Positions 1,690 to 56,078 of a DNA stretch of 60,328 nt are shown piece after piece. A program made the translations under genes and the position numbers. Position 1 is the stretch's first letter. Every line of letters starts with the position of its first letter. Location: positions 1 to 60,328 of IMG/VR virus record IMGVR_UViG_3300042399_000237; one strand, written 5' to 3'. The notes under the pieces are model-generated. The model was given only the letters and a program-made list of their open reading frames with translations. It was not told the origin of the DNA and did no database searches. This DNA is from a virus. Its lineage: Duplodnaviria > Caudoviricetes.

Positions 1690-3312
1690 TTATGGTTGAG
1701 TTTTTATCACTTGCCAACCGCCTGTATCTGAAGTATTTATTGTACCCCAAGCAGTACTTTCTGAATTATTTATTGTATCCCAAGTGGTAGATTCTGAGGT
1801 ATCAATTACTTCCCAGAGCAGTCTACTAGCAAGAGAATCTGAAGCCGCGGCAGATTCTGCAATTAAAGCTGCAAAAGCAGCGGCAGCGGCTGTGGATGAG
1901 GTGGCGCTAATTAGCTCCTGTATGCTCGAATGAAACTCCGCCATGCTTTCAATGGCATCAGAAGCAGAAGCTCCTTCACTAATAAATCCGTTAAGGTAGG
2001 CTAGGGCAGATGCCTCATCTAGAGCTGTAGCATTCTCATCCACGGCACTATTGATCTCAATAATTGCAGCGACTTGATCTTCTGCTGTAGCGTTTTCCTG
2101 AATTTCTGAACTGAAGTCTACCCCAGAAATTACTTGCTCAGATGCCGCTACCTGCTCTGCTATATCAACTTCAAATGTGGCTTGAGCTGCCGTAGCATCA
2201 GAAGCAGAGACAACCTCTATAACCGCCGAGTTCATGTCCGCTTGAGCAAAGACCTCATCTAGCCCAGTAGCCGACTCATCTATTGCTCCGTTTAAACTCA
2301 CTGCTGAGAAGACCTGATCTTCTGCGACCGCGCTCTCTGCTACAGCCGATGCAAATACTTCCTCTGCGCTTACCTGATCTGCAGCCGTTACTGACTCATT
2401 TATAGCTACCGCAAAGTCTAGAGCCGCTAAAGTAGAGTCTAAAACAGAGGCGGACTCATCTATAGCCGCGACAAATGTAGCTACTGCTACTACCGTATCT
2501 TGTGCAGTGACTAGCTCATGGACATCTGCAGCAAATATAGCTGCCGCAAAGACCTGCTCACTTCCAGTCGCCGACTCTGCAATACTTCCGGGCAAACTGC
2601 GAGTTGCGTCTACCTGATCTGCGGCTGTGGCACTCTCTATAACGGCTGAGGCAAAGTCTTCACTTGAACTTGCTTGATCTGCTGCTGTAACGCTCTCATC
2701 AACCGCAGTCTCAAATACAGCGAGAGCCTCGACTGTATCGGTCGCAGTAACTGACTCATTGATATTATTTAAGAATATAGCAATGGCAGAGACTTGGTCT
2801 GTGCCAGTAGCGGTCTCAGCAACGTCCGAAGCAAACCCAACAACGGATAACACTTGGTTGGATGCGGCAGAGGATTCTTGTATTGATCCGGGTAGCTCAC
2901 GGAGGGCTGATACTTGATCAGAGGCTGTAGCAGCCTCATCTATCGCAGAACTGAGGTCAACGGATGCCGTTACTGCATCTGTTGCAGTAACTGACTCAAT
3001 TATGGATACAGAAATGGCAGGGCTTGCTTCAATAGAGTCTGATGCGGTAGCAGATTCGTCAATAGAACGGCTTGTGCTTAGATAACCAACTGACTGAGCG
3101 TCAGCAGTAACTGATTCTTGTATGGAAGATATTAGATCAACATGTGCAGATACCGCGTCAGCACAGGTTGTTATTTCTTGAATCTCACGATTTGCAGTTG
3201 CAGCACTTGATACAGCATCAGAAGCAGAGGCTGACTCGCTAACTTCAGCGTTTAGAAAAGCCCCTGTTAGTGACGCAAATGGCGCAGCCGCAAATGATGA
3301 GATTCCAAACAC
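1690..3312 (-). CDS. Acidic Ala/Ser-rich repeat protein, probably virion/tail-associated
   Basis: 540 aa; about 20 tandem ~25-aa repeats (I.ES.TA.DQV.A...F); C-terminal W..I repeats; lies in the structural module. Confidence 0.7.
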   Translation of the reverse strand: MFGISSFAAAPFASLTGAFLNAEVSESASASDAVSSAATANREIQEITTCADAVSAHVDLISSIQESVTADAQSVGYLSTSRSIDESATASDSIEASPAISVSIIESVTATDAVTASVDLSSAIDEAATASDQVSALRELPGSIQESSAASNQVLSVVGFASDVAETATGTDQVSAIAIFLNNINESVTATDTVEALAVFETAVDESVTAADQASSSEDFASAVIESATAADQVDATRSLPGSIAESATGSEQVFAAAIFAADVHELVTAQDTVVAVATFVAAIDESASVLDSTLAALDFAVAINESVTAADQVSAEEVFASAVAESAVAEDQVFSAVSLNGAIDESATGLDEVFAQADMNSAVIEVVSASDATAAQATFEVDIAEQVAASEQVISGVDFSSEIQENATAEDQVAAIIEINSAVDENATALDEASALAYLNGFISEGASASDAIESMAEFHSSIQELISATSSTAAAAAFAALIAESAAASDSLASRLLWEVIDTSESTTWDTINNSESTAWGTINTSDTGGWQVIKTQP

Positions 3313-3313
3313 A

Positions 3314-3493
3314 TTACGCTTCTGTCAAGGCGGCTTCTGGGAACCAGCGGTTTTGTGAAACGCCGTCAGCATCAGTCCACTCAATATGGTAGAAGAAGTC
3401 TCCATCTTCAGTCATACGGAGAGCTTGTACTGGACCTTGTGGGGTAACAGCAAGAACTTGAACAACCTGACCTTTGGTAAATTTAGTTGCCAT
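3314..3493 (-). CDS. Small hypothetical protein (59 aa)
   Basis: Read manually: MATKFTKGQVVQVLAVTPQGPVQALRMTEDGDFFYHIEWTDADGVSQNRWFPEAALTEA. AGGAG RBS; fills the gap between neighbours. Confidence 0.75.
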   Translation of the reverse strand: MATKFTKGQVVQVLAVTPQGPVQALRMTEDGDFFYHIEWTDADGVSQNRWFPEAALTEA

Positions 3494-5561: not shown

Positions 5562-6014
5562 CTAAGTTGTGACTACTGTTACTGTTCCTAGCTGGAATGA
5601 TAAAGCTAGGTAATTTGGTGTTAGCCCCACATCGCTTGCTCTAGAACCTCCAACAGGAGCATAGCCCCACTGGATAATTCTACTTCCGCCTTCAGGATAG
5701 CCGTTTTCATCAACAGCCGTTCCTGACCCATTAACCAATTGTAACCCGCTATTACCAGACTGCAAATAGCTTAAATCCTTTCTAGGATTCCTTACAGCCT
5801 GCGGATCGTCAATTGGATACATCCCCAGTTGTAACTGAGGCTGATCCGGTTCCCAGCATTCAGGACAAACAATTATATTAACTTGCTTTGTCTTGATGAT
5901 CAAAGCCTTTAGCTGTGTTAGCTTGAACCTAAATCCGCATCGATCACACTCTGCAATCGAGTTCTTGGCGGACGCAAACCTATTACCCACAAATATAAGC
6001 CCTGCGAGGGACAA
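5562..6014 (-). CDS. Zn-ribbon phage protein
   Basis: CDRCG...CPECWEPDQPQL; the true start is probably the internal GTG (MGNRFAS). Confidence 0.7.
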   Translation of the reverse strand: MSLAGLIFVGNRFASAKNSIAECDRCGFRFKLTQLKALIIKTKQVNIIVCPECWEPDQPQLQLGMYPIDDPQAVRNPRKDLSYLQSGNSGLQLVNGSGTAVDENGYPEGGSRIIQWGYAPVGGSRASDVGLTPNYLALSFQLGTVTVVTT

Positions 6015-6723
6015 ATCTCACTGGAGACTTGTCTCTATCTTCTTCAGCAGCAAACTTCCACTGTTCCTCATACTGGTCCTTTAGGGACTGTATGCGGTCT
6101 GGAGCTATCTTGACAGCAAGGTAGTATGCCAAGCCAGCAATCAAGCAGGTAAGGAACCTAAAGGGTATGTCTTGGGTGTTAATACCATTGCCTGCGTCTT
6201 GTATCCTGCGTAAGCGCCAGTATACGAACGTGTAGTAATTGCTCTGATCTGGGGCTGGATATACATAGATCTGCGGATGGTCCACCCCAGTAGTGGGGTC
6301 TGTGCCTTCTGGTCTGCCACCTATTGGGTAGGTGGCTCCTGACTGGCGGTTAACCCACAATTGAATAGGACGACCAGTTGAGTTCTTGTTAGGGATGGTT
6401 GCGTATGTAGATACGCTAATACGGGTTATAGACAAGTCCTGCTGACTTGAACCCGTTCCTACCCTTGTTACATGTTCTAGAAGATCTATCGTATCAACAG
6501 GCAGATTGTATGAGACCTGATTAAGAACTAACGGTATCTCACCCTCTTCAATCGTCCACAGGTTTATCCCCCGGTTAGCCCATTCGACCGTCAGGAGGTT
6601 TAAACTGCGTCTTGCTGTACGGATATCATAACCAGTGCGTAGCTCTGCCCCGCAGCGCTCAAACGCTTCCTCAATGATGTTGGTGAGGTCTAGGTTAGAT
6701 GATGCTGTGCCTGATGTGGTCAT
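5983..6723 (-). CDS. Putative neck/adaptor structural protein
   Basis: 246 aa; IIEEAFERCG...ARRSLNLL..EWANRG.NLW...GLAYYLA pattern of phage structural proteins. Confidence 0.6.
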   Translation of the reverse strand: MTTSGTASSNLDLTNIIEEAFERCGAELRTGYDIRTARRSLNLLTVEWANRGINLWTIEEGEIPLVLNQVSYNLPVDTIDLLEHVTRVGTGSSQQDLSITRISVSTYATIPNKNSTGRPIQLWVNRQSGATYPIGGRPEGTDPTTGVDHPQIYVYPAPDQSNYYTFVYWRLRRIQDAGNGINTQDIPFRFLTCLIAGLAYYLAVKIAPDRIQSLKDQYEEQWKFAAEEDRDKSPVRFVPRRAYICG

Positions 6724-6978
6724 TTAGCATTTCCATGCCCGAAGGCTTTTGTTTATGCGGCTATTGGGATCATTTGCCGTCTTAGCGGATGTCAGCTTCT
6801 TTTTCATTCCTGACATTCTGGCACAGAATGACTTCTTGCGGCTTCCACCTTCTGGCTGCGGAGCCTTCAACCCGGGCTTGTCTGGGTTGGCTGCGTTATA
6901 TGAAGCCCTGCCTTTGGCGTTTAAACCGCCTTTCTCAGACTTGCCTTCTTTGCGTTGCCATGCGGGAGTCTTAGCCAT
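6724..6978 (-). CDS. Small basic phage protein (DUF6321-like)
   Basis: MAKTPAWQRKEGK...GGLNAKGRASYN...RKKSFCARM...SLRAWKC. Confidence 0.75.
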   Translation of the reverse strand: MAKTPAWQRKEGKSEKGGLNAKGRASYNAANPDKPGLKAPQPEGGSRKKSFCARMSGMKKKLTSAKTANDPNSRINKSLRAWKC

Positions 6979-8705: not shown

Positions 8706-9287
8706 TTATGAACCTGTTGGAGATGATCCCCCACCCTTACCGCCCACTGGCGGGGTGCTTGGCTGACCAGTTGCGGGTAGTTGCGACTGACCCCTTAGAA
8801 GGCTATTTATAAACGCCACTTGCGATCCTTGCTGACCATACTGACCTTGACCCCTTAGTTGATCAAGTTGACGGTCATATCCGCCTCTGTTCTGATTCAT
8901 AAACCCACGCTGCTGACCAAACCTACCATACTGCGGCTGACTGCCCGGAGCGTTTAAACTCTGATCTGCGTATACCGGACCCTGAGCAGGCTGTGCAACT
9001 GGCTGCGGCTGCTGAAAGCTTTGCGGGAAGCGATTAAACATCTGTTGCTGCGGCGTTCTATTCTGTCCATAGGTTTGCATGAACGGATTGAATTGAGGCT
9101 GCTGAGGAGCTACAGGAGCGACCGCAGGGGCAGGTGTGGCTACAGGCACAGGCGTGGCTGCAGGAGTCTTGGTATTTGTCCCGTAGTAAGGATCTGGGTC
9201 ATATGGAGCCAGAGGAGCTGGAGAAGCTACAGGGGCTGCAGGGGATACTCCAGCCAACTGACCAAAGAGAGGCTGCATTGTACTCAT
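8706..9287 (-). CDS. Pro/Gln-rich low-complexity protein
   Basis: 193 aa; fits the coupled gene array. Confidence 0.7.
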   Translation of the reverse strand: MSTMQPLFGQLAGVSPAAPVASPAPLAPYDPDPYYGTNTKTPAATPVPVATPAPAVAPVAPQQPQFNPFMQTYGQNRTPQQQMFNRFPQSFQQPQPVAQPAQGPVYADQSLNAPGSQPQYGRFGQQRGFMNQNRGGYDRQLDQLRGQGQYGQQGSQVAFINSLLRGQSQLPATGQPSTPPVGGKGGGSSPTGS

Positions 9288-17963: not shown

Positions 17964-18348
17964 GATTTATCTTCCTATTTTTTGACTGGTGGATAAAGTC
18001 TTTAACTTCGTCTGTAGACGGAGGGTCATACATTGGCATTTTCTGCTTTGCCAGTTCTAATAAATATTTATTTGTCCTTCTTAGCTTCTGTTGTCTGCGT
18101 AACCATTTTGCTGGGTCTTCTAGGAATCTTTTTATTCCATAAAGATGCCACAATAGATATCCTCTGACCGTCCCTATGTCCAAGAGGTCTTTTGGTTCTA
18201 GAGATATTTTTACCCACTTAGTAATACGCTGCCTTCTTTGGAATAAACATTTTATCTTCCTCATCTGAGGAGAGATGAATAAAGCCGCCTCGTCTAAATC
18301 TGAGCAATGCTTGGGTGGTTGAATCAACCAAGTCATCATGGTCCCCAT
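17953..18348 (-). CDS. Hypothetical protein between TerL and portal (start uncertain)
   Basis: The 3' part fills the 255-nt gap; the annotated start overlaps TerL by 131 nt and is probably too far upstream. Confidence 0.4.
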   Translation of the reverse strand: MGTMMTWLIQPPKHCSDLDEAALFISPQMRKIKCLFQRRQRITKWVKISLEPKDLLDIGTVRGYLLWHLYGIKRFLEDPAKWLRRQQKLRRTNKYLLELAKQKMPMYDPPSTDEVKDFIHQSKNRKINHGD

Positions 18349-20617: not shown

Positions 20618-20630
20618 GTTCCACACTCTT

Positions 20631-23059: not shown

Positions 23060-23088
23060 GTGACAGCATGTTTAAACCTCGGTACGAT
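23060..23088 (+). promoter_or_regulatory. Putative early promoter
   Basis: GTGACA-N17-TACGAT; the spacer contains GTTTAAAC. Confidence 0.55.
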
Positions 23089-42000: not shown

Positions 42001-45000
42001 ATTGAGCCTGTCTAGGACAAATTCTTTTGTAGCTTCATTAAGCTTATCTTCCAGACTCGATCCGGCGCGATGACTGTCTCTTATCTTTTGAAGGATAACT
42101 TTAAGATCTGCTTGATGCTCTGAGCTTAACAGTTCATCTGAATGCTCAGATATCGAGTCAGCCGATAGAGCAGAAAAATGTGCCGCAAAATCAGGGTCGG
42201 GCGATAAGAAGATTGAATTAGCCTGCTTGGGTTTAAACGTGCCTATGTCACGAGCCGTGCCGTGATACCAGAACTTCGGAGACCCAATGATTTCATCATC
42301 GCTAACTCCCCGATACATCCAGTCGGGGACAACGAAATCGTCATGGTTTACTTGCTTGGAGTCACCGAACCATTGTTTAAACTCTGGGGTTTTTGTTTGG
42401 CGGAGAGAGAACCTTGGCTCTTTGCCTTCGGACCTAACCGCTTCTCTGGCAGAAGACTTGAAGGATTCACGGACATCGTCCAGCCTTCTGAGTATATTGG
42501 ATCGTCCGGCTTCGCTAGTTTGAAGCCCTTTGATAAGATCTTCTCCAGCAGGCTGCTCTGTCCAGTCATGATATGGGTACTCCGATTCTGCGCCAAACAC
42601 TGAAGTGTCTTCTAGTTCGGCAATCTCGTTAATCTTAGTTTCAAACCGCTTTGCAATATCTGCAAACTCTTCAGCAGACTCAACAAATGCATCTGATCCA
42701 GTGTAGTTTATCAGAACCAATTCATTGGCACGGGTCTTTGTATATCCAGCCAATGGACCAAGCTCTTCTTGAAGAGCTTTAAACATCTTTCTTTCTTGCG
42801 TCAGGGTTAGCTCTTTGCGTTTAAATCTAAACCGATATCCTAGCTGCGCTTTGTCAGCCAGAGCTGGGTCTGCTCGGAAGAATGGAACTGCATCTTGTTT
42901 AAATGCATAGGTCATTGCTTGCGACAAGTCCATTGCATCTTGCTTGGCTATCACTGGGTCATCATGATGAACATGAACAATTAGATTAGGGGTGATGCCT
43001 CCAGCATATCCTCCGCTCCCAACTGATACCCTAACCTTGCTTTTAAGGTTAAGCGCCCGAGCCATTCCTTGAATAGCGCCTGAGTCTAGAATGATCTTGT
43101 TTAAATCTTCTTTAGCCTTCAGCTTTAATTCTGCGACCTGTCCCATCTCAGAAGATACGGATGGTATGACTTCTCCGGTTATGACATGAGTCTCTGCTCT
43201 AGTTTCTGCGGATGGTTTCTGTAGCTTTGTTGTTACAGGTAGAGGTGTTGTGCGCTTACCCAGTAGATGAGAGTAATCTACGATTGCCATCTCCATTGCG
43301 TACTCACGCAACTGAGCATCACTCAGAGCCTTCTTGTAACCCTTCGCACGATAACGCTCAAATATTGTCTTAGCCTTTTGTGTTATCCAAGAGGCAGCTT
43401 GAACTTGTCTAGCTGGCAGATTTCGTTTGCTTGCAACCAACCTAACCAAGTTCTCAGCCAATTCATACTGAGCGTCTGTAGGGGTGTCGCGGTCAAACAG
43501 CATCCGTGTCATGTGGAGGTCAATGGTAGAGCGACCGCTGTCCTTCCCTTCCATTGCATCCATGAAGTTCGAGTAGAAGGTATTTGTCTTACGACCATCC
43601 CAGTCAATACCAAAATTCAGTAGATCGCTAACAGCTTTATTCTCTCTTCCTGTGCCAACCTTAATCTCAGCGCCACGGGCAAACTGCTCCCATGCTTTAG
43701 ATGCTTTGGTGAAGTTAGCAGCAACCTCTGTATTGGCTGAGGTGATTGAAATGATTTGGAAGAACTTCTCAGCAAGAACCTTGTCTCCATTGAAGGCATT
43801 CAAGATGGCTTTAGCCGAATCTTCGTACCATTCCTTTCCTTTAATTCCTTCGTTAGTGTATTGCTGTAACTTCTTAACAGCCGTTCTAACGTCCTCTAGA
43901 GTCTTTCCAGACTCCATCCCTGCAATCCTCTCGCCAACTCTCTTGACCAATCTCTCAAGCTCACTAGCGTAGATACGAGCTTGCTTCTCAGGCAGCGGTG
44001 GTCCTTCTCTCAGAGAGAACTTGCCTTGATCTTTAGCCTCGTCATAGAGAGTCTGCTCTGTACCCAGCCCTCCTGAAATTTTCATCTGACGTTCTTTGTC
44101 ATTGCCTGTGTATTCTTTAAGGGCTTTATTAAAGCGTCTAAACGCTCTTGCTGCCTCACCCTCAGAGCGCCCTTGACTCATCGACCTATCTTTATTAGCC
44201 TTTTCTTCTGCCGCTCTATGCTTTAAGAAAAGATCGGCAACCTTGGCTCCTTCTGGGGTCTTATTAAGCTCATTGTATGTCTCCCCTTTGGGAGCTTCTC
44301 TCAGAGAGAACGCGCCGTATTTAGGCTCCATAGAGGTTGGCTCTCTGGTGGCGGGTAAGCGACCAGCCTCCACCTTGCTAAAGATACTATCGGCTGTATG
44401 GAACCCAATCCCGTCAAGGCTGTTGCCTAACGCTTCCATGAAGGACTTGATCTTGTTAAACACAGCGCCGATAAGACCTGCTGGAGGCTTGGTCTGATCA
44501 AAGTCAGAGAATGCGTCAGCAATCGCTTCTTCGATCAATGCCTCTGGGCTGAGGTTTAAACCCTGATACCTTTCAATGATATTGTATTTGCTGATCCACT
44601 CAGACTTGGCTTTGTTCTCTAGGACCCTCCACTGGTCTTTAGAGAAAGCACCCAACTCTTTAAGGGCATGGACACCCTCATGCCTTAGAACCCTCATTGG
44701 TTTCTCGGCATCTATAGCAATCTTTATTAGCTTCTTGGAATACTCGCCGTCTGCCGTAGATTCGTTGCTCGCTCTGATTGCGTTAACGATGTTTAAATGC
44801 AGATCACCCAAGCCAAGGCGAGTCATCATCGGACGAAGCTTTCTGTCTAACTCTGCTGCCTGTTCTTTGAAGCGTCCAGTAAACATACCGGCACTTAACA
44901 ACCTTTCTTCTGCCTTTTTGTTACCGACCATATGAGGCTCGCGTATACCCTCTACAGAGCCGTATCTAGCCTTCAGCTCATCCTGAGCCATGACACTCAA

Positions 45001-47253
45001 CTCAGCGGCTAGGTCGCCCTTCTGGTTAGGCGCAGCGGCTATTATCTGACGCAGGGTATCGTCAGGCAGTTTAGACACAGCATGCGCTTGCGCCTCTTCT
45101 CTACTATCAAATGTTCCGGCTGCCTCGTTGTTGTCATACAGAGTGTAGTCAGACTTGGTGGTGATCTTCTCGCCTCTAGGCTCAATCGTCAGAGGCTCTG
45201 CCAAATTCTCAGCGGCTGCGTTTAAACTCTCTATCTTAGCGAGCTTTGCTTGGTTCTTGCTTTCTAAGCCTGCAGCCTTGGTCTGATACTCAATGGTATT
45301 GGTCAGTCCCTGAGCAGCCATTGTGTCTAGCTCGGTCTGGCTCTGGGCAATCTGGTCCCCTAGTTTAGCCGCCTCTCTGGTGCTTCTAACTGCAAGACCC
45401 TGCCGCGCAGCGGAAAGGGTATCTATTCTTGACTTAGCCTTGTCCTCAGTTGCATGTTCTTCTAGGTCACCCTGCGATGTCTTAATTACATAAGACTCAG
45501 GCACAGAATCAGATGCGTATGTGTTCTCTCTAACGTCAGGACCGCCAGCTACCTTGTTGGCGTTTGGAACATGCACATTGATATTAGTCGTCCCGTCTGG
45601 GTTGGGGTATGACTTTGCGTACAGGTCGCCCCGACCGGCTGCGGTATGCAGTAATGACTCTGCATCCACATCGTTCTTCAATCCAGTGTAGCCCTTGATC
45701 TTATCGATAGTGTCCGCTAACGAGAGAGCGTTGTCTTCTGTATGGTCAGCGTTTAAATTATTAATCGCTACATCGTATTGCTCTTCCGAGAAGCGAGTGG
45801 CGCTTGTGCCTGCCAGATTCAAAGGAGTCTTCGAGATAGGTAATGCACTGACAGCTTTGATAGCAGAGAACAGTTGAGGCGGACTCATACCGTTTAAATC
45901 ATCTGTGCCTGTGGACCTACGAAGGAAATCTCTGAATCCTTGCGAGTCAGTATCTACATTCTTCTGTCCGGCGATGTTTAAAACGGTTGCTATGTGCTGA
46001 GGAGCGTTAGCTACATCTGTATCGCTAGGGACAAACCCCATCTTCTCTGCAATTAGATTGCTGATTTCTTGCTGAGGCATACCGGCATCAGACAGATCTT
46101 CTACAGAGAACGACTTCAGTAGAGGCTTACCTGCTTCTGCCCTTGTTTTGTTAATGAACGCCAGATGATCTGCGTTTAAACCGCTTGACTGAGTTGTAGT
46201 CCCGTCATCAGCAACGGTCTGCTTCTGGGCTGAGAAGTTTCCTAACGGATTGTAGATAGGATGCTTGTCTTGTGCAGCCGCCATCTTCTCTTTAGGACGT
46301 GAAGCAGCGTCTGCATCAGCGGTATCCTTAGCCGCTTGCATAGCCTTATCTATCTCTTCCTTATCCTTCTTGGCTAGGCTTGCTTGGTAGTCTCTGCGGA
46401 TGTCCTTCCTGAGAATTAGATCCAGACCTACCTGAGCTACCCCACCTACCCCAGCACCCATTGCCCCCTCTTTAAGGGCTGATCCACCGATCTCTTGGTC
46501 AGGATTGTATATCTGTTGAGCTATAACATCTTGTAAGGCTCCTGAGCCTGCTTCCTGTACGCCTTCTACAGCACCTTGCTGCAGCGCTCTCTTGCCATAA
46601 GCAAGCGGAGTTAGATCGGATGCTTTAGACAGACCCTTAGTGGCTCTGAATAGATTCTGTATTGGGAGGAGTTCTGTTAGTCCAGCAGGAACACCAGCGA
46701 CTAACGATCCAAACTCTTGACCGGGGGTAACTGTTAGACCTTCAGCACGAGCGGTCTCTACTCGCTGACGGGCTTCTTCTGCTCCCAGACCGGCTGTTTG
46801 AGCGACTGCTACAGGAGCTGCTGCGCGAGGAGCAACTCCCTTTATTACTGTCCCAAGACCTTTTAGCCCAGCTTGCGGACCAAGCATTGATCCGAATGAG
46901 CCTAAGCCATGTGCAAACTGAGACCCAAGACCTTCATCGGTCGGGGCTAATGATTGCTCTGTTTCTGTGATTGATTTGCCAAAGCCCGTCTCTGCAAACG
47001 GAGTCATCTCTGGATTGAAATAACGAGCAGCGGCGTATGGGAGAGAGCTTAACCCCCCTACAGCTTGGACCAGACCAGACCCAACTCCCCTTGCAATATT
47101 CCTTGGAGCGTTTAAAGCCTGACCTAAAGCTGTGGGTGGAGGTGGGAATGCTTCTGGATAGGCGCGTTTTGCAACCTCTAGAGCCTTGGCTCTAGGGACA
47201 TCATCATGGATTCTCCCACGAGACCCGTCTGGCAGATCTATTTCATATGCCAT
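39055..47253 (-). CDS. Large polyvalent (putative ejected) protein, 2732 aa
   Basis: Zincin HEGVH...EEAIAD; central WY...SAN...K..TF..N...TIDLHM...QVQAASW domain; ART-PolyVal-like TPEFKQWFGDSK...YHGT...PNQVKS; C-terminal LPD38-like RIPIPFELG...NYSFFTGQPI. Confidence 0.85.
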   Translation of the reverse strand: MAYEIDLPDGSRGRIHDDVPRAKALEVAKRAYPEAFPPPPTALGQALNAPRNIARGVGSGLVQAVGGLSSLPYAAARYFNPEMTPFAETGFGKSITETEQSLAPTDEGLGSQFAHGLGSFGSMLGPQAGLKGLGTVIKGVAPRAAAPVAVAQTAGLGAEEARQRVETARAEGLTVTPGQEFGSLVAGVPAGLTELLPIQNLFRATKGLSKASDLTPLAYGKRALQQGAVEGVQEAGSGALQDVIAQQIYNPDQEIGGSALKEGAMGAGVGGVAQVGLDLILRKDIRRDYQASLAKKDKEEIDKAMQAAKDTADADAASRPKEKMAAAQDKHPIYNPLGNFSAQKQTVADDGTTTQSSGLNADHLAFINKTRAEAGKPLLKSFSVEDLSDAGMPQQEISNLIAEKMGFVPSDTDVANAPQHIATVLNIAGQKNVDTDSQGFRDFLRRSTGTDDLNGMSPPQLFSAIKAVSALPISKTPLNLAGTSATRFSEEQYDVAINNLNADHTEDNALSLADTIDKIKGYTGLKNDVDAESLLHTAAGRGDLYAKSYPNPDGTTNINVHVPNANKVAGGPDVRENTYASDSVPESYVIKTSQGDLEEHATEDKAKSRIDTLSAARQGLAVRSTREAAKLGDQIAQSQTELDTMAAQGLTNTIEYQTKAAGLESKNQAKLAKIESLNAAAENLAEPLTIEPRGEKITTKSDYTLYDNNEAAGTFDSREEAQAHAVSKLPDDTLRQIIAAAPNQKGDLAAELSVMAQDELKARYGSVEGIREPHMVGNKKAEERLLSAGMFTGRFKEQAAELDRKLRPMMTRLGLGDLHLNIVNAIRASNESTADGEYSKKLIKIAIDAEKPMRVLRHEGVHALKELGAFSKDQWRVLENKAKSEWISKYNIIERYQGLNLSPEALIEEAIADAFSDFDQTKPPAGLIGAVFNKIKSFMEALGNSLDGIGFHTADSIFSKVEAGRLPATREPTSMEPKYGAFSLREAPKGETYNELNKTPEGAKVADLFLKHRAAEEKANKDRSMSQGRSEGEAARAFRRFNKALKEYTGNDKERQMKISGGLGTEQTLYDEAKDQGKFSLREGPPLPEKQARIYASELERLVKRVGERIAGMESGKTLEDVRTAVKKLQQYTNEGIKGKEWYEDSAKAILNAFNGDKVLAEKFFQIISITSANTEVAANFTKASKAWEQFARGAEIKVGTGRENKAVSDLLNFGIDWDGRKTNTFYSNFMDAMEGKDSGRSTIDLHMTRMLFDRDTPTDAQYELAENLVRLVASKRNLPARQVQAASWITQKAKTIFERYRAKGYKKALSDAQLREYAMEMAIVDYSHLLGKRTTPLPVTTKLQKPSAETRAETHVITGEVIPSVSSEMGQVAELKLKAKEDLNKIILDSGAIQGMARALNLKSKVRVSVGSGGYAGGITPNLIVHVHHDDPVIAKQDAMDLSQAMTYAFKQDAVPFFRADPALADKAQLGYRFRFKRKELTLTQERKMFKALQEELGPLAGYTKTRANELVLINYTGSDAFVESAEEFADIAKRFETKINEIAELEDTSVFGAESEYPYHDWTEQPAGEDLIKGLQTSEAGRSNILRRLDDVRESFKSSAREAVRSEGKEPRFSLRQTKTPEFKQWFGDSKQVNHDDFVVPDWMYRGVSDDEIIGSPKFWYHGTARDIGTFKPKQANSIFLSPDPDFAAHFSALSADSISEHSDELLSSEHQADLKVILQKIRDSHRAGSSLEDKLNEATKEFVLDRLNSGENIMPLYVRAEKTFDYENPAHIEILKPIISKRYTNQDGPVARSMQAQYLGALKKGAWDTLENPDIQKAIKGAGFDSYYVAEGGNKNLAVYSPNQVKSAVGNTGAFSRSNDDVKYSIRATSAQTKPQGRFDEANADLSPDMTAAINRTTTARKNEGWSDRIAAAFSPRSFTAFRQAFIHGADSISNLTRESALQFGEQEYHADRSAIAAVVFADRAAGIAASSFVNGPPVYKNGFASVPENSTVRGLIPILEPIMKGGAHMFQRFQFYAGTRRGSRLMYETRVGKDGKTITSTREQNFTKEDIERGKILEKMHPEFKQVFAEYQQYNNGLVQFMKDTGVISAKEAELWTKNWDYIPFYRQMDGDRINAPAIFSSISGVKKPKELKGGEAPLADFMETVIRNSRAAIEAGMKNVAGQRTIRDLQRLNQASEVPPATKGYDIVSIKQAGVTKFYKVDDSLVYEALKGLDAPHLPFVEILAKPANFLRDMVTKDPGFMLANLARDSMQAWVTSGVNMTPLFDTFKQAGKAMLGSNPEAAALARSGYFTGYDFAGDTKSSAAAVEKELRKRTGTQTAAEKALMPISKIMDILDKGAHISDLATRSEVYKRVLEETGNEAEATYQALEIMNFSRKGNSALIRIVTALVPFMNARIQGMDVLYRTGFGRSATRNNEQQKKLFATRSLTILGLTAMYLALAADTEEYKNATPEERDNYWILGGLGRIPIPFELGVLFKVFPERIYQHVWGMDTGADLRQSIARNLSSTLVMNPIPHVAMPIVENIANYSFFTGQPIVGKGMEDVYTPYQANPSTSLLAQLVGKETNQSPLKIDNLIRGYTGTIGTYAVMMLDAAMRGEGDDVKATKKLEQMPVFKRFMTTKQGSGTINAYYELKKEVDTAVKTVNFLERQGDYDELAVFQAGRGGKLLGIKDYMNGLNEEMSSLRTFRREARRSKMDPDNLAEIESNIKDAEINVTKNIQFVKKALD

Positions 47254-48881
47254 TATTGTCGAGCGCCCTCAGCCACGCCCCTAATTTCCTTTGGTGCTGC
47301 CGGTTGAGCAGAAGCTCCAGCAAGACCCATTAACCTTTGGTACTCTTCTGCAAGCTGCTGATCGTATTGTGGGTGATTATCGAAGATACCAAGTGCCATT
47401 AACCTTGTTCTAGCAGTGGCAAGCAACTTGGGATCTGTCTTCCCCATCGCGTAAGCAGCCCTAACTTTAGCCGCTTCCACAGACGCAGAATTTTCTCCTT
47501 GCGTTTCAGATCTGGCTTTATAAAGATCAGCCAAGCCATAATTCCCTGCAATCTTGCTTGGCAATTCTGCTGCCGTAAAATCCTGCTCCCTTTTCTTGGC
47601 AGCAAGGTTCCCGCCAACTTGCTGACCCTCTAGAGTGGCTTTGTACTGATCAAGCATGTTTTGACGACCAGCTTGTCCAGCGCTGTATCTAGCTTGATCT
47701 TGCAAGAGCTGTGACTTGGCTAAGTCTTGTCTAGCCTGAGTCATTAGGTCTTCTCCGCCACGAACATCTTTCATGCTCTGACGATAAGCTAACATACCCT
47801 CTTCTGCGCCCTCGCCAAAATAACGACCGGGAGACTTGGATTTTAGAACCCCAATGCCAGCCATCATAAGGGCTTCATTCAATGCAGACTTTCTGCGATC
47901 TTTAAGATTCTGAGTGCGAGTGCCTAGCTCTTTTTCAGTCCCAACAAGTCTATCTGGGACATCTTTGTTATATCTCTCAGTCTGTCTCTGCTGGGCAGCA
48001 GCAAACTCTTCCTCGGTTGGAAGCGCTTTAGGATAATAAGCAGCAAACGGATCTACTTCTGGAGACTTGACAGCAGAGCCTCCAAGAGAGCCTCTAGAGA
48101 GAGCGATATTGGGTCTTGGCGGACCCATATTCTCAGCATTAACCTGATCAGCCGCTACCTGCTTCTGGGTAGCAGCCTGAGCAGCATCTTTCTGCATCTG
48201 TATAGTTTTAGCTCCAATAGCCACTTCCTTTGCTTGCTGTCTTCTCATGTACTCGCCAAGACTAACAGCGTCACCAGTCTCAGGATCAATCTTCTTTATT
48301 TCCGGAGACCCAAACATTCCTTGCACAGCCCCACTTAAAGACCCATACGCCTTTTGCGTAGCCTTACTTAAAGCAGGAAGATTTTCATCCAACTTATTTG
48401 AATCCGACTGATTCGCTGTTTGTAGAAGCTCAAACGGCATCCCGCCTTGCTGGAACCTCTTAACATCACCACCCTCTTGGAATGCAACTAACCCACCGCC
48501 AGCCATACGCTTACGGGGAGAAGCCATTGCATCTGTAGCGGCTAATGAACTAGCCTGTGGGGTAGCCATCAGACCAGCAGCAGGCATCTGAGGTATCTGC
48601 GGAGGCATAGGCATCTGAGGAGGCAGAGGCTGTTGTTGTGGTGCTGGCTGTTGCATTTGAGCAACAGCAGACATCATCTGCTCCCTATTAGGCTGAGTCA
48701 GATCTTCTACAACGGTAGACTTAGGATCATTCTTCAGCGCCCTATCTCGCATTCCTTTGCGTCTAGTTAGCTCTGAGATGACCAGATATGCTGGGTAAGC
48801 GCCTGTAGGCTGCTGTACCTCATTCATCAGGTAATGATCAGGAACGTCCTTTAGGTTGTTTGAAAGCTCTATGAGATTCAT
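47253..48881 (-). CDS. Putative internal virion/ejection protein with GG motifs
   Basis: MAGGGLVAFQEGGDVKRFQQGG; helical, Q/A-rich. Confidence 0.65.
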   Translation of the reverse strand: MNLIELSNNLKDVPDHYLMNEVQQPTGAYPAYLVISELTRRKGMRDRALKNDPKSTVVEDLTQPNREQMMSAVAQMQQPAPQQQPLPPQMPMPPQIPQMPAAGLMATPQASSLAATDAMASPRKRMAGGGLVAFQEGGDVKRFQQGGMPFELLQTANQSDSNKLDENLPALSKATQKAYGSLSGAVQGMFGSPEIKKIDPETGDAVSLGEYMRRQQAKEVAIGAKTIQMQKDAAQAATQKQVAADQVNAENMGPPRPNIALSRGSLGGSAVKSPEVDPFAAYYPKALPTEEEFAAAQQRQTERYNKDVPDRLVGTEKELGTRTQNLKDRRKSALNEALMMAGIGVLKSKSPGRYFGEGAEEGMLAYRQSMKDVRGGEDLMTQARQDLAKSQLLQDQARYSAGQAGRQNMLDQYKATLEGQQVGGNLAAKKREQDFTAAELPSKIAGNYGLADLYKARSETQGENSASVEAAKVRAAYAMGKTDPKLLATARTRLMALGIFDNHPQYDQQLAEEYQRLMGLAGASAQPAAPKEIRGVAEGARQ

Positions 48882-50182
48882 GACTTCATTCCTTCTCTAG
48901 CAAGACCAGCGGCTAATAGACCAGCCCCGCTCATCTGCTGGGCTAGACTTGGTTGAGCTTCATATACTGTCTTGCCGCCTGTAGCAGCAAGATTTGAACT
49001 CCCACGCAACAGATCAGACATGAACCCAAGCTGTTTATACGGGTACGCCTTTTGATCTATGTAGTTCTGATAAGCAATCTCAAGCGCTTGCTGTTGTTGC
49101 TGCTGGTCCATAGCGCCAAAGGCTTCCTGAGCTTTAGCTAGGTCTATTCCTGCTGTCTGCCTCTGAGCGCCTAAGTTGCCAAGACTTGTAGCTGCGGTGA
49201 TAGCTTGGTTAGATCCTTGCAGACCAGCGGTTGTCCCAAACTGCCTAGACTGCTCTGCTGCCTTTTGAGCGTCCATAGACAACTGAGCTTCTCTGGCTGC
49301 TGATGACTCCCCAAAGGTTGAGCCATACTGTCTAGAGGCTTCTGCGGCTTTCTGAGCATCCATCATTGCTGCTTGATTAGCTAGTTGAGCCTGAGTGCCA
49401 TACTGAAGGTTCTGCCCTTGTGCTGTCATGGCACGACCTTGGTCGCGTTCAAACTGAGCTTGTGCGTTCTCATATGCAGACTGAAGACCTTGAGCCTGTA
49501 TACCGCCTAACTGAGACCCTAATGCCCTTTCTCTTTCTGTCTGACCAATAAGCTGTCTGGCTCCGCCAAATGTACCTTGACCCGCAGCGGATAGGTTTGC
49601 ATTCTTCTGAACAATCTGTGCATCCCGCATTGCCTGAATCTTTTGCTGTTCTACAACCGCCTGCATGTAAGGAGAGGTGTACTGTGCTACTTGATCCGCG
49701 CCAAAGGTAGCGGATGTTGCTCTCTCAGGGGTGACTGTAGCTGCGTTAAACGCTGTAGGTGAATAAGACCTTGTTGCGTAGTTAGTTCCAAATCCTGAAG
49801 GGGCATAGTTACCAGCGCCTAGACTTGATGCCCCAGCCGCCGTAGCTAGATCTGTTGCTGTGCCAAAGTTAGCAGAAGGAGCCATCCCTGTTACGGATGA
49901 TCTAGCAGCCGCTTGCTCTGGGGTTGCTACAGCAAGTCGATCTCCCTTGTATGCCTGATACGGAGCGCCCGGAGAGCCTTCTGGATTAACGCCAGTTATA
50001 GCGCCTGCCTGCCCCAGCATCGCTTCCATGTATGGCTTGGCGTATTCTGGTACGGAGACCTGAGATGTCTGGGTAGGCATTGGAGGGGGCGTACCGCCAC
50101 CACCTTCTAGGGTCATACCCCTTCTTCCGCATCTTGGTTTAAACGCTCCCTCTGGGAGCATTGAGAAATGGTTATATATCAT
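48878..50182 (-). CDS. Putative ejection/DNA-transfer protein
   Basis: YTSPYMQAVV...GTFGGARQ...YPYKQLGFMSDLLRG; A/Q/G-rich. Confidence 0.65.
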   Translation of the reverse strand: MIYNHFSMLPEGAFKPRCGRRGMTLEGGGGTPPPMPTQTSQVSVPEYAKPYMEAMLGQAGAITGVNPEGSPGAPYQAYKGDRLAVATPEQAAARSSVTGMAPSANFGTATDLATAAGASSLGAGNYAPSGFGTNYATRSYSPTAFNAATVTPERATSATFGADQVAQYTSPYMQAVVEQQKIQAMRDAQIVQKNANLSAAGQGTFGGARQLIGQTERERALGSQLGGIQAQGLQSAYENAQAQFERDQGRAMTAQGQNLQYGTQAQLANQAAMMDAQKAAEASRQYGSTFGESSAAREAQLSMDAQKAAEQSRQFGTTAGLQGSNQAITAATSLGNLGAQRQTAGIDLAKAQEAFGAMDQQQQQQALEIAYQNYIDQKAYPYKQLGFMSDLLRGSSNLAATGGKTVYEAQPSLAQQMSGAGLLAAGLAREGMKS

Positions 50183-52486: not shown

Positions 52487-53473
52487 TCAAGGTATTGCTG
52501 ATACAAACTGCAATGTAGCTATGACTCCGGGAGACTGTGGAGTGGTGGGAGTAGACCCAGCGGCTATAGTTGCAATACTTATCCCTAAATCAGTTCCATG
52601 CCACATGATCTCCAAGAAATCAGCAGCAGCTAATTGGATCATATAGTTTAAACCGGCAATGAGTTGCCCGTTTACCCCGCCATGACTACTGTGGATTGTA
52701 AAGACGCTATTGCTATTGGCTATGCCTGCCGCTGTAGGGGTGGCTGCGTTCTTTCTAAACCATATATCAATGTCATGAGCCGCGACATCAGTATTAATAA
52801 ACTGAGCGCTGAACTGTAAGTTATATATCCCTGCATTGGTCACAGTGAGCTTGGTTGCCATAGCCCCGGTTAAGGCTCTTGAGGTCACTGTTTGAGACAC
52901 AGAGACGGTATACGTCCCTACGCCACCGCTTGTACCAGATAACTGGTCAATAACATAGGTGTCGGCAGTAACTGTGGTTCCTGCTATTAACATGCCCGGA
53001 AAGATAAGCCCTGTTAACCCAGAGGCTACAGTTAGAACTGTAAGAGCTATTGAGCCTGTGAAGGCAGCAGATCTAGAGCCAACCGATACCCCGCTAGATA
53101 TGTCTGTAGCTGCAAGACGCATCGGGTATTCAGTGGTTACGCTTCCGCCAGCTTGATTGGTTGTATCGTAGAACGATCCATAGGGCAGAGTAACGGCTAG
53201 TCCAGACCCTATGAATGTGCCGGTAAAGTCTCCGCCTACAAAGTGATCCCCAGTAAATGTAGTGCCATCAAAGTCACCGCCGGTAAACTGATCCCCTATG
53301 AACTCACCGCCATAGAAGAAGTCACCCCTGTAAGACTGATTGAAGAGAGGGGCATTAGAGTCTAGTTTATTGAAGTACAGCTCAATCACTCGAATGAGCT
53401 GAAGCATGTACTCCCTGTCATATTCTGGCTTAGGGTTAGGTAGAGGAGACGCTCTGAATGACACCATTGCCAT
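52487..53473 (-). CDS. Tail structural protein
   Basis: PYGSFYDTTNQ...GIYNLQFSAQF...IWFRKN; FxG pentapeptide repeats. Confidence 0.65.
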   Translation of the reverse strand: MAMVSFRASPLPNPKPEYDREYMLQLIRVIELYFNKLDSNAPLFNQSYRGDFFYGGEFIGDQFTGGDFDGTTFTGDHFVGGDFTGTFIGSGLAVTLPYGSFYDTTNQAGGSVTTEYPMRLAATDISSGVSVGSRSAAFTGSIALTVLTVASGLTGLIFPGMLIAGTTVTADTYVIDQLSGTSGGVGTYTVSVSQTVTSRALTGAMATKLTVTNAGIYNLQFSAQFINTDVAAHDIDIWFRKNAATPTAAGIANSNSVFTIHSSHGGVNGQLIAGLNYMIQLAAADFLEIMWHGTDLGISIATIAAGSTPTTPQSPGVIATLQFVSAIP

Positions 53474-55617
53474 TAGCGTTCTCCGTCTGTCCTACCATCA
53501 AGCCTTGGTGTACCCAATGCCCACTGCGTTCCCAATCCATCAGAACTAATCTTTAGAGCTAACTGCCTTGCCCTAGCCCTAATGAAGATCTGTTCCGTAA
53601 ATGTATCTACTGATGCAGAAATGACACTAGCCGAATCATCAACATTACTGGCAAAAGATGACCCCGGAAAGTTCCTAGACCTCATTGTGAAGGTTGCTTC
53701 AGGAGCTACTGCAGTTGAGTTGTCAAATGAGACATCAGGAATTATCCGTCTGATAAGGGTGAACTTGTCGCCCTCATTGATATCAAAGTCATTTGACTGG
53801 ATATAGGACTCCATAGGGAGTCCATCATCGTCTATGCCGTCCTCATGATTTAGCAGAGTCCCAATCTGAGTATCAAAGTCTGTACGCACAGCTTGCGGAT
53901 GATCTCTTAAAGGAGAGTCCAGCCAAGCAGTCCTCTCTATGTTTCCGTAGTACCAGATCTTTTCAAGATGGTTGTAGATAACGTACTTGTCGTTTGTCTG
54001 GCTGGTTAGACTTGGATACATCCACCAGACCTCATTAAAGCCTTCGTTAGTGCCTGAGATAATTTGCTCGGCTTGATCAAAGTTCATGTCATTAAAGACA
54101 TAGTTTCTTAATGTCGTTGGCAATGTATCTACTCGACCTGAGTAAGAATAGAACTTATCTCTACCCATCCAGTAGGTAATGTTGTTAACAGTGGCTACGC
54201 CCCTACCGCTGAGTATTGATATGTTGTCTGCGTATTCTTGTATAGAGAATACATCTGTAGTCCCAGTGAACTGCAGGGTATATAGATGGGTGTCAGTAAA
54301 GACCAAGATTTCCTGCCTTGTTGCTACTGCCCTTATGATTCTAGATCCTCTAGATACAGCCAAGAATCCAGCAGAGGTTGAGGCACTAACGAGCCAATTG
54401 GAAGGCTCATTTTGATTAGCCCATCTTATTAACAGAGGATTGAATTTCTCTGCGGTTGTTTCGCCATACTCTGTTGCCCCAAACGCAATTAGATGCTTGT
54501 CATTCTGAGAGATAAGAATCTGCATTGCTTGAAACGGACACAAGGTAGGGTCAAAGCCATTGGCTGTTGCTACTTCCTGTAAAGATATTGCCCTCTCTGC
54601 TAAAGACAAATCAGCATCTGGGTCGCCCCCTCTTTCCCAATAATAAATACCCTCATTGCGGATATTCATAACTAGGTCATTATTGAAGTTATCAAACCAC
54701 CAGTCTCTTTGTGGCAGAGCAACTGGGTTGATTGTTCCAGATCCCCACCCACCCCTACTCCACCCCCCTACCCCCCACCCATACCCAAATGTCCCACCAA
54801 TGTCGCCAACATCTATCTCATAACTTCCAACGGTAGCTGCTCCTTGGGCTGACTGAATTCCTGCGCCTGTTGTGGTGATATTTATAGCCGCACCACCAAT
54901 AGTTAAAGAGAGTTCGCAGGTTGAGCCAGCCGGGGCTATTACATAATACTTTGTATCAATGACCAGAGGACTTGGCAGAGCAGAGGTTGTACTTACATAC
55001 AAAACATCATCAAGTACTGGGGTATATGTAGTGAATGTAATAACGTCTGAAACATTGGCGGTGAAGATGTTGGTTGATGCGTCTACAGAGGTTGCCAAAA
55101 CAGGCAGACCTGTTGTTGGGCTTTTGGCTTCGATGGTGTACTCAGAGCCACTAACAACTGTAGCAATCTTGTAATTCTGATTCAGGACTGCGGCAGTTAT
55201 ATTCCCACCCAGACCCAATGCTCCGCTAATGGTCACATAGTTTCCAGCAGAGGCTGAAACTCCAATATCTGTAACGGTGATTGTGGCTGAACCAGCAGTT
55301 GCTGAAAATGTTACGTCTCCAGCAGCAGATATATCTGCATATGGGGTGATATCAGAAAGGTTTCCGCCTGCCTCAATATAGACCTTTGCATTGGTCCCAA
55401 GACCAAGGAAGTTGTCAGAGAATGTGGTGATCCAGCCCCACATCTGACGGCAGGTTCCTATCAGGGTATTGGCGGTATATTCTCTCCAGCCGCCTAGTTT
55501 TTGTGGATAGCCTGAGTAGAAGCGTACCTTGTCGCCATCCCACCAGCCGCCTTCGCCAGTGTAATTGGTCTGATCTCGGACAACTCCCGGTCTGAACTGC
55601 AGTCTCTGGAATGCCAT
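53473..55617 (-). CDS. Tail hub / packaged-DNA stabilisation protein (P22 gp10-like)
   Basis: 714 aa; LQFRPG...WWDGDKVRF..G.PQKLGGW...IRW...EVWWMYPS...RARARQ...WALG.PRLD...DG.R. Confidence 0.7.
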   Translation of the reverse strand: MAFQRLQFRPGVVRDQTNYTGEGGWWDGDKVRFYSGYPQKLGGWREYTANTLIGTCRQMWGWITTFSDNFLGLGTNAKVYIEAGGNLSDITPYADISAAGDVTFSATAGSATITVTDIGVSASAGNYVTISGALGLGGNITAAVLNQNYKIATVVSGSEYTIEAKSPTTGLPVLATSVDASTNIFTANVSDVITFTTYTPVLDDVLYVSTTSALPSPLVIDTKYYVIAPAGSTCELSLTIGGAAINITTTGAGIQSAQGAATVGSYEIDVGDIGGTFGYGWGVGGWSRGGWGSGTINPVALPQRDWWFDNFNNDLVMNIRNEGIYYWERGGDPDADLSLAERAISLQEVATANGFDPTLCPFQAMQILISQNDKHLIAFGATEYGETTAEKFNPLLIRWANQNEPSNWLVSASTSAGFLAVSRGSRIIRAVATRQEILVFTDTHLYTLQFTGTTDVFSIQEYADNISILSGRGVATVNNITYWMGRDKFYSYSGRVDTLPTTLRNYVFNDMNFDQAEQIISGTNEGFNEVWWMYPSLTSQTNDKYVIYNHLEKIWYYGNIERTAWLDSPLRDHPQAVRTDFDTQIGTLLNHEDGIDDDGLPMESYIQSNDFDINEGDKFTLIRRIIPDVSFDNSTAVAPEATFTMRSRNFPGSSFASNVDDSASVISASVDTFTEQIFIRARARQLALKISSDGLGTQWALGTPRLDGRTDGER

Positions 55618-56078
55618 TATGCGTATAATCCCGGTAGGTATACGGTCTTAATATCCTTCCTGACCGCAGTTAATGCTTGGTTTATCAAGCGTTCTGGATT
55701 GTATGATACATGAACCCAGCCACTATCAGGGATACCTCTTGTGTAGAACTCCAAGATGACCTGTGTGAACTTAAAGTTCTGAGAGATATGCGAGGCAAGA
55801 TCATAATTAGCCATTCCCGGTATCTCTAAATCTGCAGCACATCCAGTCATATGGTCAGAGGTCTTAGAGCCGCCTGTAGCCTCGTTAACAGCCTTACATC
55901 TGTAACCGCTATTAATCTTAACTCTGCCAAACTTATCTCTAATCGGCTGTAATATCTTCTCGCATAGAACCCGTAGATTCTCTATCTCCGCCTTGGTTGG
56001 GATGTTGGGAATGTTTAAACGAAGGGCAGCCTCGCTCTTAACAAGCTCTTCTAGGGTGAAGTTCTTGGAGAGGTTCAT
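55617..56078 (-). CDS. Endolysin, peptidase M15A family
   Basis: LSKNFTLEEL...INSGYRC..VN...GG...SDH..G.AAD...WVHVS. Confidence 0.9.
   Translation of the reverse strand: MNLSKNFTLEELVKSEAALRLNIPNIPTKAEIENLRVLCEKILQPIRDKFGRVKINSGYRCKAVNEATGGSKTSDHMTGCAADLEIPGMANYDLASHISQNFKFTQVILEFYTRGIPDSGWVHVSYNPERLINQALTAVRKDIKTVYLPGLYA

Follow-up and report, generated by a model that had tools for sequence, protein, structure and literature searches.

The 60,328-base stretch of DNA analysed here (IMG/VR record IMGVR_UViG_3300042399_000237, hereafter the window) is a complete one-contig virus record of a lake-water phage, and it raises the question why one 8-bp palindrome, GTTTAAAC, is written so many times into a phage genome. 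The word occurs in 32 exact copies and is the commonest 8-mer of the genome. The evidence described below points to a selected word which is set by the phage, and which is most likely the docking word of a SprT-like protein encoded by the phage itself (positions 23812-24438). We give this reading a probability of roughly 0.5.

An earlier note on this DNA had counted the 32 copies by eye, and a pattern search recovered all of them at the same positions. Its estimate of about one copy by chance was also borne out. In 100 shuffles which preserved dinucleotides the word occurred 0.67 times on average and never more than 3 times, with 0 of 100 reaching 32, and Markov models of orders 0 to 4 expected 0.7-4.0 copies (1.09, 0.69, 0.79, 1.85 and 4.02). 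Orders 5 and 6 expect 15.5 and 28.6 copies; models of these orders already include the word's own 6- and 7-mers. The density of the word in the window is 0.53 per kb, and 24 of the 32 sites were confirmed to lie within 21.9-46.2 kb. The frequency of TTTAAA had been named in the note as a possible trivial cause. This explanation was tested and fails: the G..C flanks are present on 32 of the 63 TTTAAA hexamers, and TTTAAA is common in the window mainly because of GTTTAAAC and not the reverse. Coding was examined by synonymous-codon shuffling inside called genes, in which protein sequence and codon usage were preserved (300 shuffles). The shuffled genomes contained on average 7.76 copies, including 7 immovable sites outside called genes, so that about 0.8 copies are expected in called genes against 25 observed. 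This result speaks against amino-acid usage, which had been thought an improbable cause. The excess of GTTTAAAC is not explained by composition or coding.

One-mismatch variants of the word also occur, as had been noticed before. GTTTAAAT/ATTTAAAC was found 12 times and CTTTAAAC/GTTTAAAG 7 times in the window. The variant at positions 3/6 is in excess, with 5 copies against 1.0 expected in the window and 17 against 1.6 in its relatives. Variants at positions 2/7 and 4/5 are not in excess in the window clade. This pattern looks like the tolerance profile of a binding protein. The word is also the restriction word of PmeI/MssI. As for a restriction-modification target, no cognate methyltransferase or endonuclease gene was found, and the word is enriched, not avoided. 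The absence of a recognisable methyltransferase, already remarked in the earlier note, held in every window ORF (open reading frame) scanned.

Inside genes, the word was found in only two codon phases, xGT-TTA-AAC and xxG-TTT-AAA-Cxx, which are used 15 and 10 times. The third phase is unused because it would read TAA. Altogether 25 of the 32 sites are inside called genes; the others are outside, including intergenic DNA. No conserved flank or consensus was found in the 30 bases either side of the sites, and within 40 nucleotides upstream of starts the sites are enriched only 1.7-2.6-fold. A reading as flanking consensus, promoter or terminator was rejected on these two observations. We give hardly any credence to a word which acts in RNA, as a slippery heptamer or a nuclease site, or which is a by-product of codons or peptides. 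U_UUA_AAC is a classical slippery heptamer and is contained in the xGU-UUA-AAC phase, and in a set of enriched contigs described below as group 2, 30 of 232 sites are positioned 0-3 nucleotides before a start codon, compared with 2.8% of random positions. Against these points, the two open phases are used about equally, sites are present in intergenic DNA too, the excess is removed by codon shuffling, and an RNA word would have no reason to be a palindrome.

The sites occur all along the window. On the left, the copies at 2290-2297 and 6598-6605 are in the xGT-TTA-AAC phase of the ORFs 1690-3312 (-) and 5983-6723 (-), and those at 6919-6926 and 8952-8959 are in the ORFs 6724-6978 (-) and 8706-9287 (-). 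The copy at 6919 is retained in 3 of 3 alignable diverged relatives. The copy at 16520-16527 is situated in the portal gene in the F-K phase, and that at 21886-21893 is 15 nucleotides from the 3' end of the small-terminase gene (21871-22629, -). The copy at 23070-23077 falls in the region from which the late (-) and early (+) gene blocks diverge. The SprT-like gene contains one copy at 24290-24297 on the codons R-L-N, and a 321-residue ORF contains one at 26368-26375 on the same three residues. Between them, the copy at 25872-25879 is placed at the 3' end of a CobS-like gene and precedes the GGGAGG ribosome site of the following gene. Several others are also close to gene starts. The copy at 27735-27742 is immediately upstream of GGAGG and ATG, that at 36360-36367 is upstream of the GGGAGG ribosome site of the ORF 36383-36730, that at 28618-28625 is 11 nucleotides past the ATG at 28607, which has GGGAGG before it, and that at 37694-37701 is 12 nucleotides past an ATG with GGAGG before it. 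The intergenic region at 29.13-29.65 kb has three copies, at 29389-29396, at 29467-29474 (followed by GGGCTAATGTAAATAC) and at 29594-29601 (followed by TGGCTAATGTAAATAC). The primase/helicase gene (30127-31821, -) contains the copy at 31471-31478, the RusA gene (32493-32861, -) that at 32720-32727, the ERF gene (33670-34440, +) that at 34241-34248, and the ORF 35232-35612 (+) that at 35576-35583, near its 3' end. A single gene for a protein of 2732 residues (39055-47253, -) has 8 of the 32 sites, at 39393-39400, 40720-40727, 41046-41053, 42231-42238, 42375-42382, 44554-44561, 45220-45227 and 46174-46181. The last three copies, at 50137-50144, 52646-52653 and 56013-56020, are in the ORFs 48878-50182 (-), 52487-53473 (-) and 55617-56078 (-).

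Comparison with relatives points to selection acting on the DNA itself, with codons fixed at two sites in relatives of 50-70% protein identity. Conservation at synonymous positions had been proposed in the earlier note as a test, and it was applied to the site at 26368. Of 20 distinct relatives, with protein identities of 47-92%, 18 have CGT TTA AAC at this site, and different synonymous codons are used for the conserved Arg, Gly, Leu and Tyr residues next to it. The other two have Met in place of Leu, together with CGG or CGC as the Arg codon. The same site is retained in 17 of 17 alignable diverged relatives, and the site at 24290 in 12 of 16. Among 31 distinct relatives, 13 have CGT TTA AAC at 24290; the codons of the remainder differ at several positions, which indicates that the site is either complete or absent. 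In four window-like relatives of about 93% identity all 34 of 34 aligned sites are kept, compared with 65-76% of other 8-mers.

The distribution of the excess among phages was analysed in 80 IMG/VR contigs chosen by portal similarity, of which L001, L002 and L010 were not counted, being near-copies or borderline cases. Eight of these contigs (86 kb) contain 58 sites against 1.07 expected, and the 69 others (710 kb) contain 13 against 15.6 expected. A different iterated palindrome was looked for in the relatives without the excess, and none was found. The enriched contigs are dispersed among site-free sisters in the portal tree, and in the large-terminase tree they form one well-supported clade. 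The trait therefore belongs to the module of terminase and early genes, and the structural modules have been exchanged. The complete sister genomes G006-G010 have 0, 0, 1, 1 and 3 sites. When IMG/VR was scanned for pairs of sites separated by 10-40 bases, 118 new loci were obtained. Ten contigs among them (L285, L304, L318, L320, L321, L375, L385, L370, L355 and L301) are here called group 2; they have 1.2-4 sites per kb, and their large terminase is only about 24% identical to that of the window. WhiB, amidoligase, amidotransferase and dNMP-kinase (deoxynucleoside monophosphate kinase) genes are carried by these contigs. In group 2 and in the genomes G011 and G015 the sites end sharply at the start of the structural genes.

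Cultured phages carry the word too. Dinoroseobacter phages R5C and R26L contain 17 and 20 copies of GTTTAAAC and Pseudanabaena phage Pan1 contains 16, while 0.11-0.16 copies are expected in these Nanhaivirus genomes (more than 100-fold excess) and the reversed-word control gives 0. In the three genomes 53 of the 55 TTTAAA hexamers are GTTTAAAC. Of the aligned sites, R5C shares 6 of 8 with R26L and 6 of 9 with Pan1, compared with 33% and 15% of other 8-mers. The host of R5C and R26L is an alphaproteobacterium and that of Pan1 a cyanobacterium, which places the carriers of one word in two host phyla.

These data bear on an origin in the host, either by a biased repair or methylation like that proposed for HIP1, or by a host-protein site which the phage mimics or titrates. 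Such an origin seems quite improbable to us. HIP1 itself is a precedent, an 8-bp palindrome at 15-300-fold excess (PMC5861425). No DNA polymerase was found in the profile scans of the window ORFs, so that host replication is used, and the window sequence is present only in lake-water metagenomes, so enriched lake lineages could share hosts. Against a host origin, sister phages, as placed by the portal and terminase trees, contain 0-3 sites, the sharp stop at the structural genes in group 2, G011 and G015 is unlike a genome-wide bias, and the word is common to Pan1 and to R5C and R26L, despite the different phyla of their hosts. In an even draw of 401 alphaproteobacterial genomes the density of GTTTAAAC reached at most about 0.05 per kb against 0.53 in the window, and 5 other bacterial genomes, taken from a scan for three clustered sites, gave no comparable density, the Actinomycetota and the true lake hosts of the window clade lying outside this sample. 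A word shared with the host chromosome, for which the earlier note had suggested a search, is not supported by these genomes or by sister phages that span host phyla. The note's broader idea of a genome-wide mark or binding site fits the codon shuffle, the synonymous conservation and the recurrence in unrelated phages; the part of it which proposed titration of a host protein found no support. The excess tracks the phage lineage, not the host.

With a phage-set word, the reader is to be looked for among the phage proteins. The strongest candidate is the SprT-like zinc-ribbon protein of 208 residues (23812-24438, +), encoded near the start of the early + strand block. It has an HELAH motif, in which the HExxH site is present, and a C-terminal CPSCG...CPN ribbon. 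The protein matched phrog_6361 at E 1.4e-41, and GenBank genes annotated as 'SprT-like protease' are 40-45% identical to it. Its match to Pfam PF10263 had E 4.7e-4 and 20.4 bits against a cutoff of 25.6, and the homologue in L301 scored 26.3 bits. An AlphaFold2 model had a mean pLDDT (predicted local distance difference test) of 86.1 and gave weak fold matches in Foldseek to abylysin, SPRTN, Wss1 and CapP (4jiu, E 3.7e-3; 6mdw, E 1.1e-2).

The presence of this gene goes together with the excess. It was found in full length in 7 of 7 enriched whole or large records, namely the window (32 sites), G016 (29), G018 (36), G019 (40), the unrelated complete genome G015 of 35% G+C (34), G011 (22) and R5C, and none of the 5 complete relatives without the excess (G006-G010) has it. 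The complete 64-kb genome G017, which belongs to the same family as the window, has 6 sites and only a 58-residue C-terminal remnant of the protein. The SprT-like protein is the only window protein with homologues in group-2 contigs (27-38% identity), and it is the only ORF family with matches in all five enriched groups, the early genes of which are otherwise unrelated; the comparison used BLAST at E 1e-4 with ORFs of at least 40-50 residues, from which small or divergent genes would escape. The CobS, CobT and 321-residue neighbours were also considered as correlates, and were rejected as they are absent from G015, G011, group 2 and R5C. A narrower SprT-like sampling in IMG/VR returned the window clade only. 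In GenBank, 165 phage records with a SprT-like homologue were found, mostly of Arthrobacter and Microbacterium phages and annotated as 'SprT-like protease'. The HExxH motif is lost in L285, L320, L355, L375, L288, L078 and L269, in which the C-terminal part is kept. As the motif is lost in some enriched lineages, binding of the word by this protein would probably be through the conserved C-terminal ribbon. A separate observation concerns L001, L205, L206 and L207, the terminase and portal of which are 94-100% identical to those of the window. Their early-left region is replaced: CobS and CobT are missing, SprT is a C-terminal remnant of 52-58 residues, and there is 1 site in about 6 kb.

In the soil actinophages, the word itself was found to differ. 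Microbacterium phage Percival contains 2 copies of GTTTAAAC and 14 of GTTTACAC, Arthrobacter phages Maureen and Crewmate contain 0 of GTTTAAAC and 17 and 21 of GTTTACAC, and R5C has 0 of GTTTACAC. The reversed-word control for GTTTACAC gives 0, and within 20 kb of Crewmate 10 copies were counted where 0.03 are expected. Counts on the two strands were 8:6, 12:5 and 14:7 in the Percival, Maureen and Crewmate group, a weak bias. The SprT-like proteins of these three phages are 40-45% identical and stand apart on the tree with modest support. The word switches to GTTTACAC together with the SprT-like subfamily in these phages. A different palindrome, CCAGCTGG, was noticed as the top 8-bp palindrome in Maureen (13 against 0.72) and in Achromobacter phage Mano (9 against 1.05); this may only reflect CAG-CTG codon usage in G+C-rich genomes.

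A fairly unlikely alternative is that the word is read by a different phage factor, such as an RNA or a protein that is small or evolves fast, which moves together with the SprT-like gene; the latter would then only mark the module. The association is a correlation drawn from few lineages, the BLAST comparison of ORFs would miss small or divergent genes, and the protease motif is dispensable in enriched lineages, all of which agree with such a factor. Against it, the five enriched groups have early genes that are not related in other respects, and the comparison brought up no second common family, no conserved neighbour of the SprT-like gene was detected in a crude extraction, and the word changes together with the SprT-like subfamily.

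A LexA-type winged-helix protein was initially the first candidate for the reader. This stand-alone protein of 75 residues (20631-20858, -; PF01726, E 1.8e-16) is encoded just upstream of the large-terminase gene, the start of which it overlaps. Homologues of at least 42% identity were present in 7 portal-selected loci, all of them enriched, and in 0 of 38 loci without the excess, and 78 contigs chosen by the LexA-type protein alone had 474 sites in 773 kb. These contigs all belong to one terminase clade and so count as one event. G017 encodes the protein yet has only 6 sites, and the protein is missing from the complete genome G015, from G011, from group 2 and from the cultured phages, all of which are enriched. 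The candidate was refuted by G017, G015, G011 and group 2, and we consider it very improbable as the reader. In L003 and L078 a copy of GTTTAAAC was observed 7-13 nucleotides upstream of the start of the LexA-type gene.

Within site-rich regions the sites are more evenly spaced than random. The coefficient of variation (CV) of the intervals was 0.36 in R26L (0 of 20,000 simulations as low), 0.51 in Pan1 (p 0.004) and 0.61 in R5C (p 0.03). Among the other records it was 0.49 in L304 (below 0.0001), 0.47 in L385 (p 0.0002), 0.61 in L285 (p 0.0009) and 0.59 in G011 (p 0.007). The window gave 0.53 (p 0.0006) for 21.9-46.2 kb, a sub-region picked after looking.

Spacing more even than random would also suit an enzymatic target, at which the word is nicked, cut, used for priming or given a modification other than methylation, with the regular intervals serving recombination-dependent replication or priming. 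The window encodes a recombination set of a PD-(D/E)XK nuclease, ERF, RusA, a Ref-like HNH nuclease and endonuclease VII, R5C carries 7-deazaguanine genes, and group 2 has the amidoligase, amidotransferase and dNMP-kinase genes mentioned above. We regard an enzymatic target as unlikely, as none of these enzyme families is common to the enriched groups, no methyltransferase was found in the window, and the genome would be broken into pieces by symmetric cutting at 32 sites. The tolerance of variants at 1/8 and 3/6, and not at 2/7 or 4/5, also resembles a binding profile.

According to the docking-word reading, the SprT-like protein would bind GTTTAAAC, and copies would be placed wherever coding tolerates them, in two phases, at gene junctions and in intergenic repeats. 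The result would be an early and replication half of the genome without a long word-free stretch. As a guess of low confidence, the protein may bring a DNA-dependent protease or a DNA-coating protein to the incoming phage DNA early in infection, possibly in order to clear or exclude host proteins bound to DNA. A wider form of this proposal can be offered only tentatively, and we hold it more doubtful than the docking word itself: a sequence-addressed SprT-like system, in which small zinc-ribbon proteins of phages, descended from DNA-dependent proteases, would read an 8-base address, GTTTAAAC or GTTTACAC depending on the subfamily, written evenly by phages with hosts of several phyla into their own DNA, and which would target the protein to phage and not to host DNA early in infection, where it would remove or exclude host proteins bound to the DNA.

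A number of observations weigh against the docking word and its reader. The reader was assigned from co-occurrence only, and the association comes from a small number of events, the enriched records representing about five or six independent lineages. The pattern would look no different if a small gene that escaped detection accompanied the SprT-like gene. In Mano, which also encodes a SprT-like protein, only 4 copies of GTTTAAAC and 0 of GTTTACAC were counted. The protein had no match to a solved structure at E <= 0.001, and its Pfam score is below the SprT-like cutoff. A monomeric zinc ribbon alone does not explain a perfect palindrome, and the variant word is non-palindromic. The density of about 1 site per kb in early genes against about 0.25 per kb in structural genes is explained only loosely. 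As for the spacing, it is not significantly even in L321, G015, L355 and L375, the whole genomes of the window clade are clustered by region and not even, and the sub-region of the window was chosen post hoc. Conservation is also not uniform. The site at 25872 is retained in just 1 of 10 diverged relatives, and aligned sites are kept in 1 of 3 cases in L001-type relatives and in 0 of 2 in L205/L207. The portal site at 16520 is explained by the protein, as non-enriched phages carry the word in the same column.

Among known systems, the closest are HIP1 and the stoperator arrays of Cluster A mycobacteriophages, and the word fits into neither family. HIP1 of cyanobacteria is a property of cellular chromosomes and has been tied to methyltransferases. 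HIP1 (GCGATCGC) was argued to be selected, with conservation within and between ORFs and non-random spacing (PMC5861425). The word of the window is likewise an exact 8-bp palindrome in more than 15-fold excess and is conserved in ORFs beyond the need of the protein. It differs in that it is found in phages, is absent from sister phages and from the sampled bacterial genomes, and has no methyltransferase found with it; its regularity is at 0.3-4 kb and not at 10-90 kb. The comparison to HIP1 drawn in the earlier note holds for abundance and selection, and not beyond these.

The stoperators of temperate phages offer a second comparison. They are dozens of asymmetric sites, oriented with transcription and mostly intergenic, which are bound by a helix-turn-helix (HTH) immunity repressor of the L5 type. 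In Cluster A mycobacteriophages, dispersed copies of a word are bound by a phage-encoded protein, and the words vary slightly between lineages to match the protein of each (PMC9283540, PMC6550527). The many copies dispersed over a phage genome and the lineage-specific variant in Arthrobacter and Microbacterium phages (GTTTACAC) are similar. In contrast, GTTTAAAC is palindromic (GTTTACAC being a one-base variant) and mostly within genes, the co-occurring protein is SprT-like, several host phyla are involved, and Pfam and PHROG scans found no repressor of the immunity-HTH type and no integrase in the window.

The candidate reader itself resembles SPRTN, Wss1 and CapP in its HExxH motif and its zinc-ribbon tail; its best fold matches, all weak, are abylysin, SPRTN (6mdw), Wss1 and CapP. 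It differs in that HExxH is lost in several enriched phage lineages. SprT, SPRTN, Wss1 and the CapP proteases of CBASS (cyclic-oligonucleotide-based antiphage signalling systems) need DNA to act. To our knowledge no sequence-specific DNA word has been described for SprT, SPRTN, Wss1 or CapP. Other short words, such as Chi, the DUS/USS uptake sequences and the matS and SlmA sites, are kept at high copy in genes by selection because host proteins read them, and Chi and the uptake sequences are asymmetric. GTTTAAAC is similar to them as a short in-gene word at high copy number which is kept by selection. These are words of host chromosomes, whereas GTTTAAAC is not enriched in the bacterial genomes searched.

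No description of a GTTTAAAC array in phages was found in the published literature searched, supplementary files being outside the scope. The text of PMC9599517 does not contain 'palindrom', and PMC9837993 does not contain 'palindrom', 'SprT' or GTTTAAAC. If the proposal is true, lytic phages of lake, soil and sea would share an undescribed system of a protein plus an address, with the word written into genes at a cost in codon choice and spaced to leave no early DNA without it. It would provide the first known DNA word directing a protein of the SprT/SPRTN type, a way of self-marking in phages without base modification, and a function for the widespread 'SprT-like protease' genes of actinophages. 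The unresolved HIP1 problem would gain a second, phage-borne case, and a simple sequence signature would be available for finding members of the system in metagenomes. The cultured carriers R5C, R26L, Pan1 and the Arthrobacter and Microbacterium phages make the system testable.

Megablast against GenBank phages gave no match close to the window. The nearest GenBank phages are HTVC023P-like podoviruses, with a portal identity of at most 46%. The stretch is present in 24 lake-water metagenome runs, in contigs only, and no RNA dataset is among the holders. In addition to the genes named above, a large terminase, a CobT-like protein and a cell-wall hydrolase were recognised. In the late block, the Pfam scan found adaptor, capsid, endonuclease VII, peptidase M15, LPD38 and ART-PolyVal domains. 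LPD38 and ART-PolyVal domains are typical of giant injected polyvalent proteins, and we infer that they belong to the 2732-residue ORF, the batch scan naming no member. The intergenic region at 29134-29650, in which two of the three sites are followed by the shared sequence GGCTAATGTAAATAC, is a possible origin or control region beside the primase/helicase gene.

Most of the 401 alphaproteobacterial genomes contain GTTTAAAC less often than its reversed word CAAATTTG, with 4 against 34 copies in one case and 9 against 165 in another, which suggests mild avoidance. A scan of bacterial genomes for three clustered sites was also tried; it returned only local tandem arrays in many phyla, with no genome-wide excess. 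These GTDB contigs (L081-L200) contain tight arrays of 3-11 copies of GTTTAAAC, 9-37 bases apart, in many bacterial and archaeal phyla, and resemble iteron-like elements or local repeats that have no relation to the arrays in phages. Four group-2 contigs (L285, L304, L320 and L321) are actinophage-like and encode WhiB, Amidoligase_2, a class-II glutamine amidotransferase and a dNMP-kinase, a gene set reminiscent of thymidine hypermodification pathways. A G+C-rich hairpin in L285 has the word in its loop (6872-6879) and a T-rich sequence after it, and resembles a bidirectional terminator. Finally, the large terminase of the window (18218-20650, -) has 810 residues, compared with about 480-520 in its relatives. 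Its PHROG matches are limited to residues 40-237 and 531-788, and the central 290 residues resemble an insertion, perhaps an intein.

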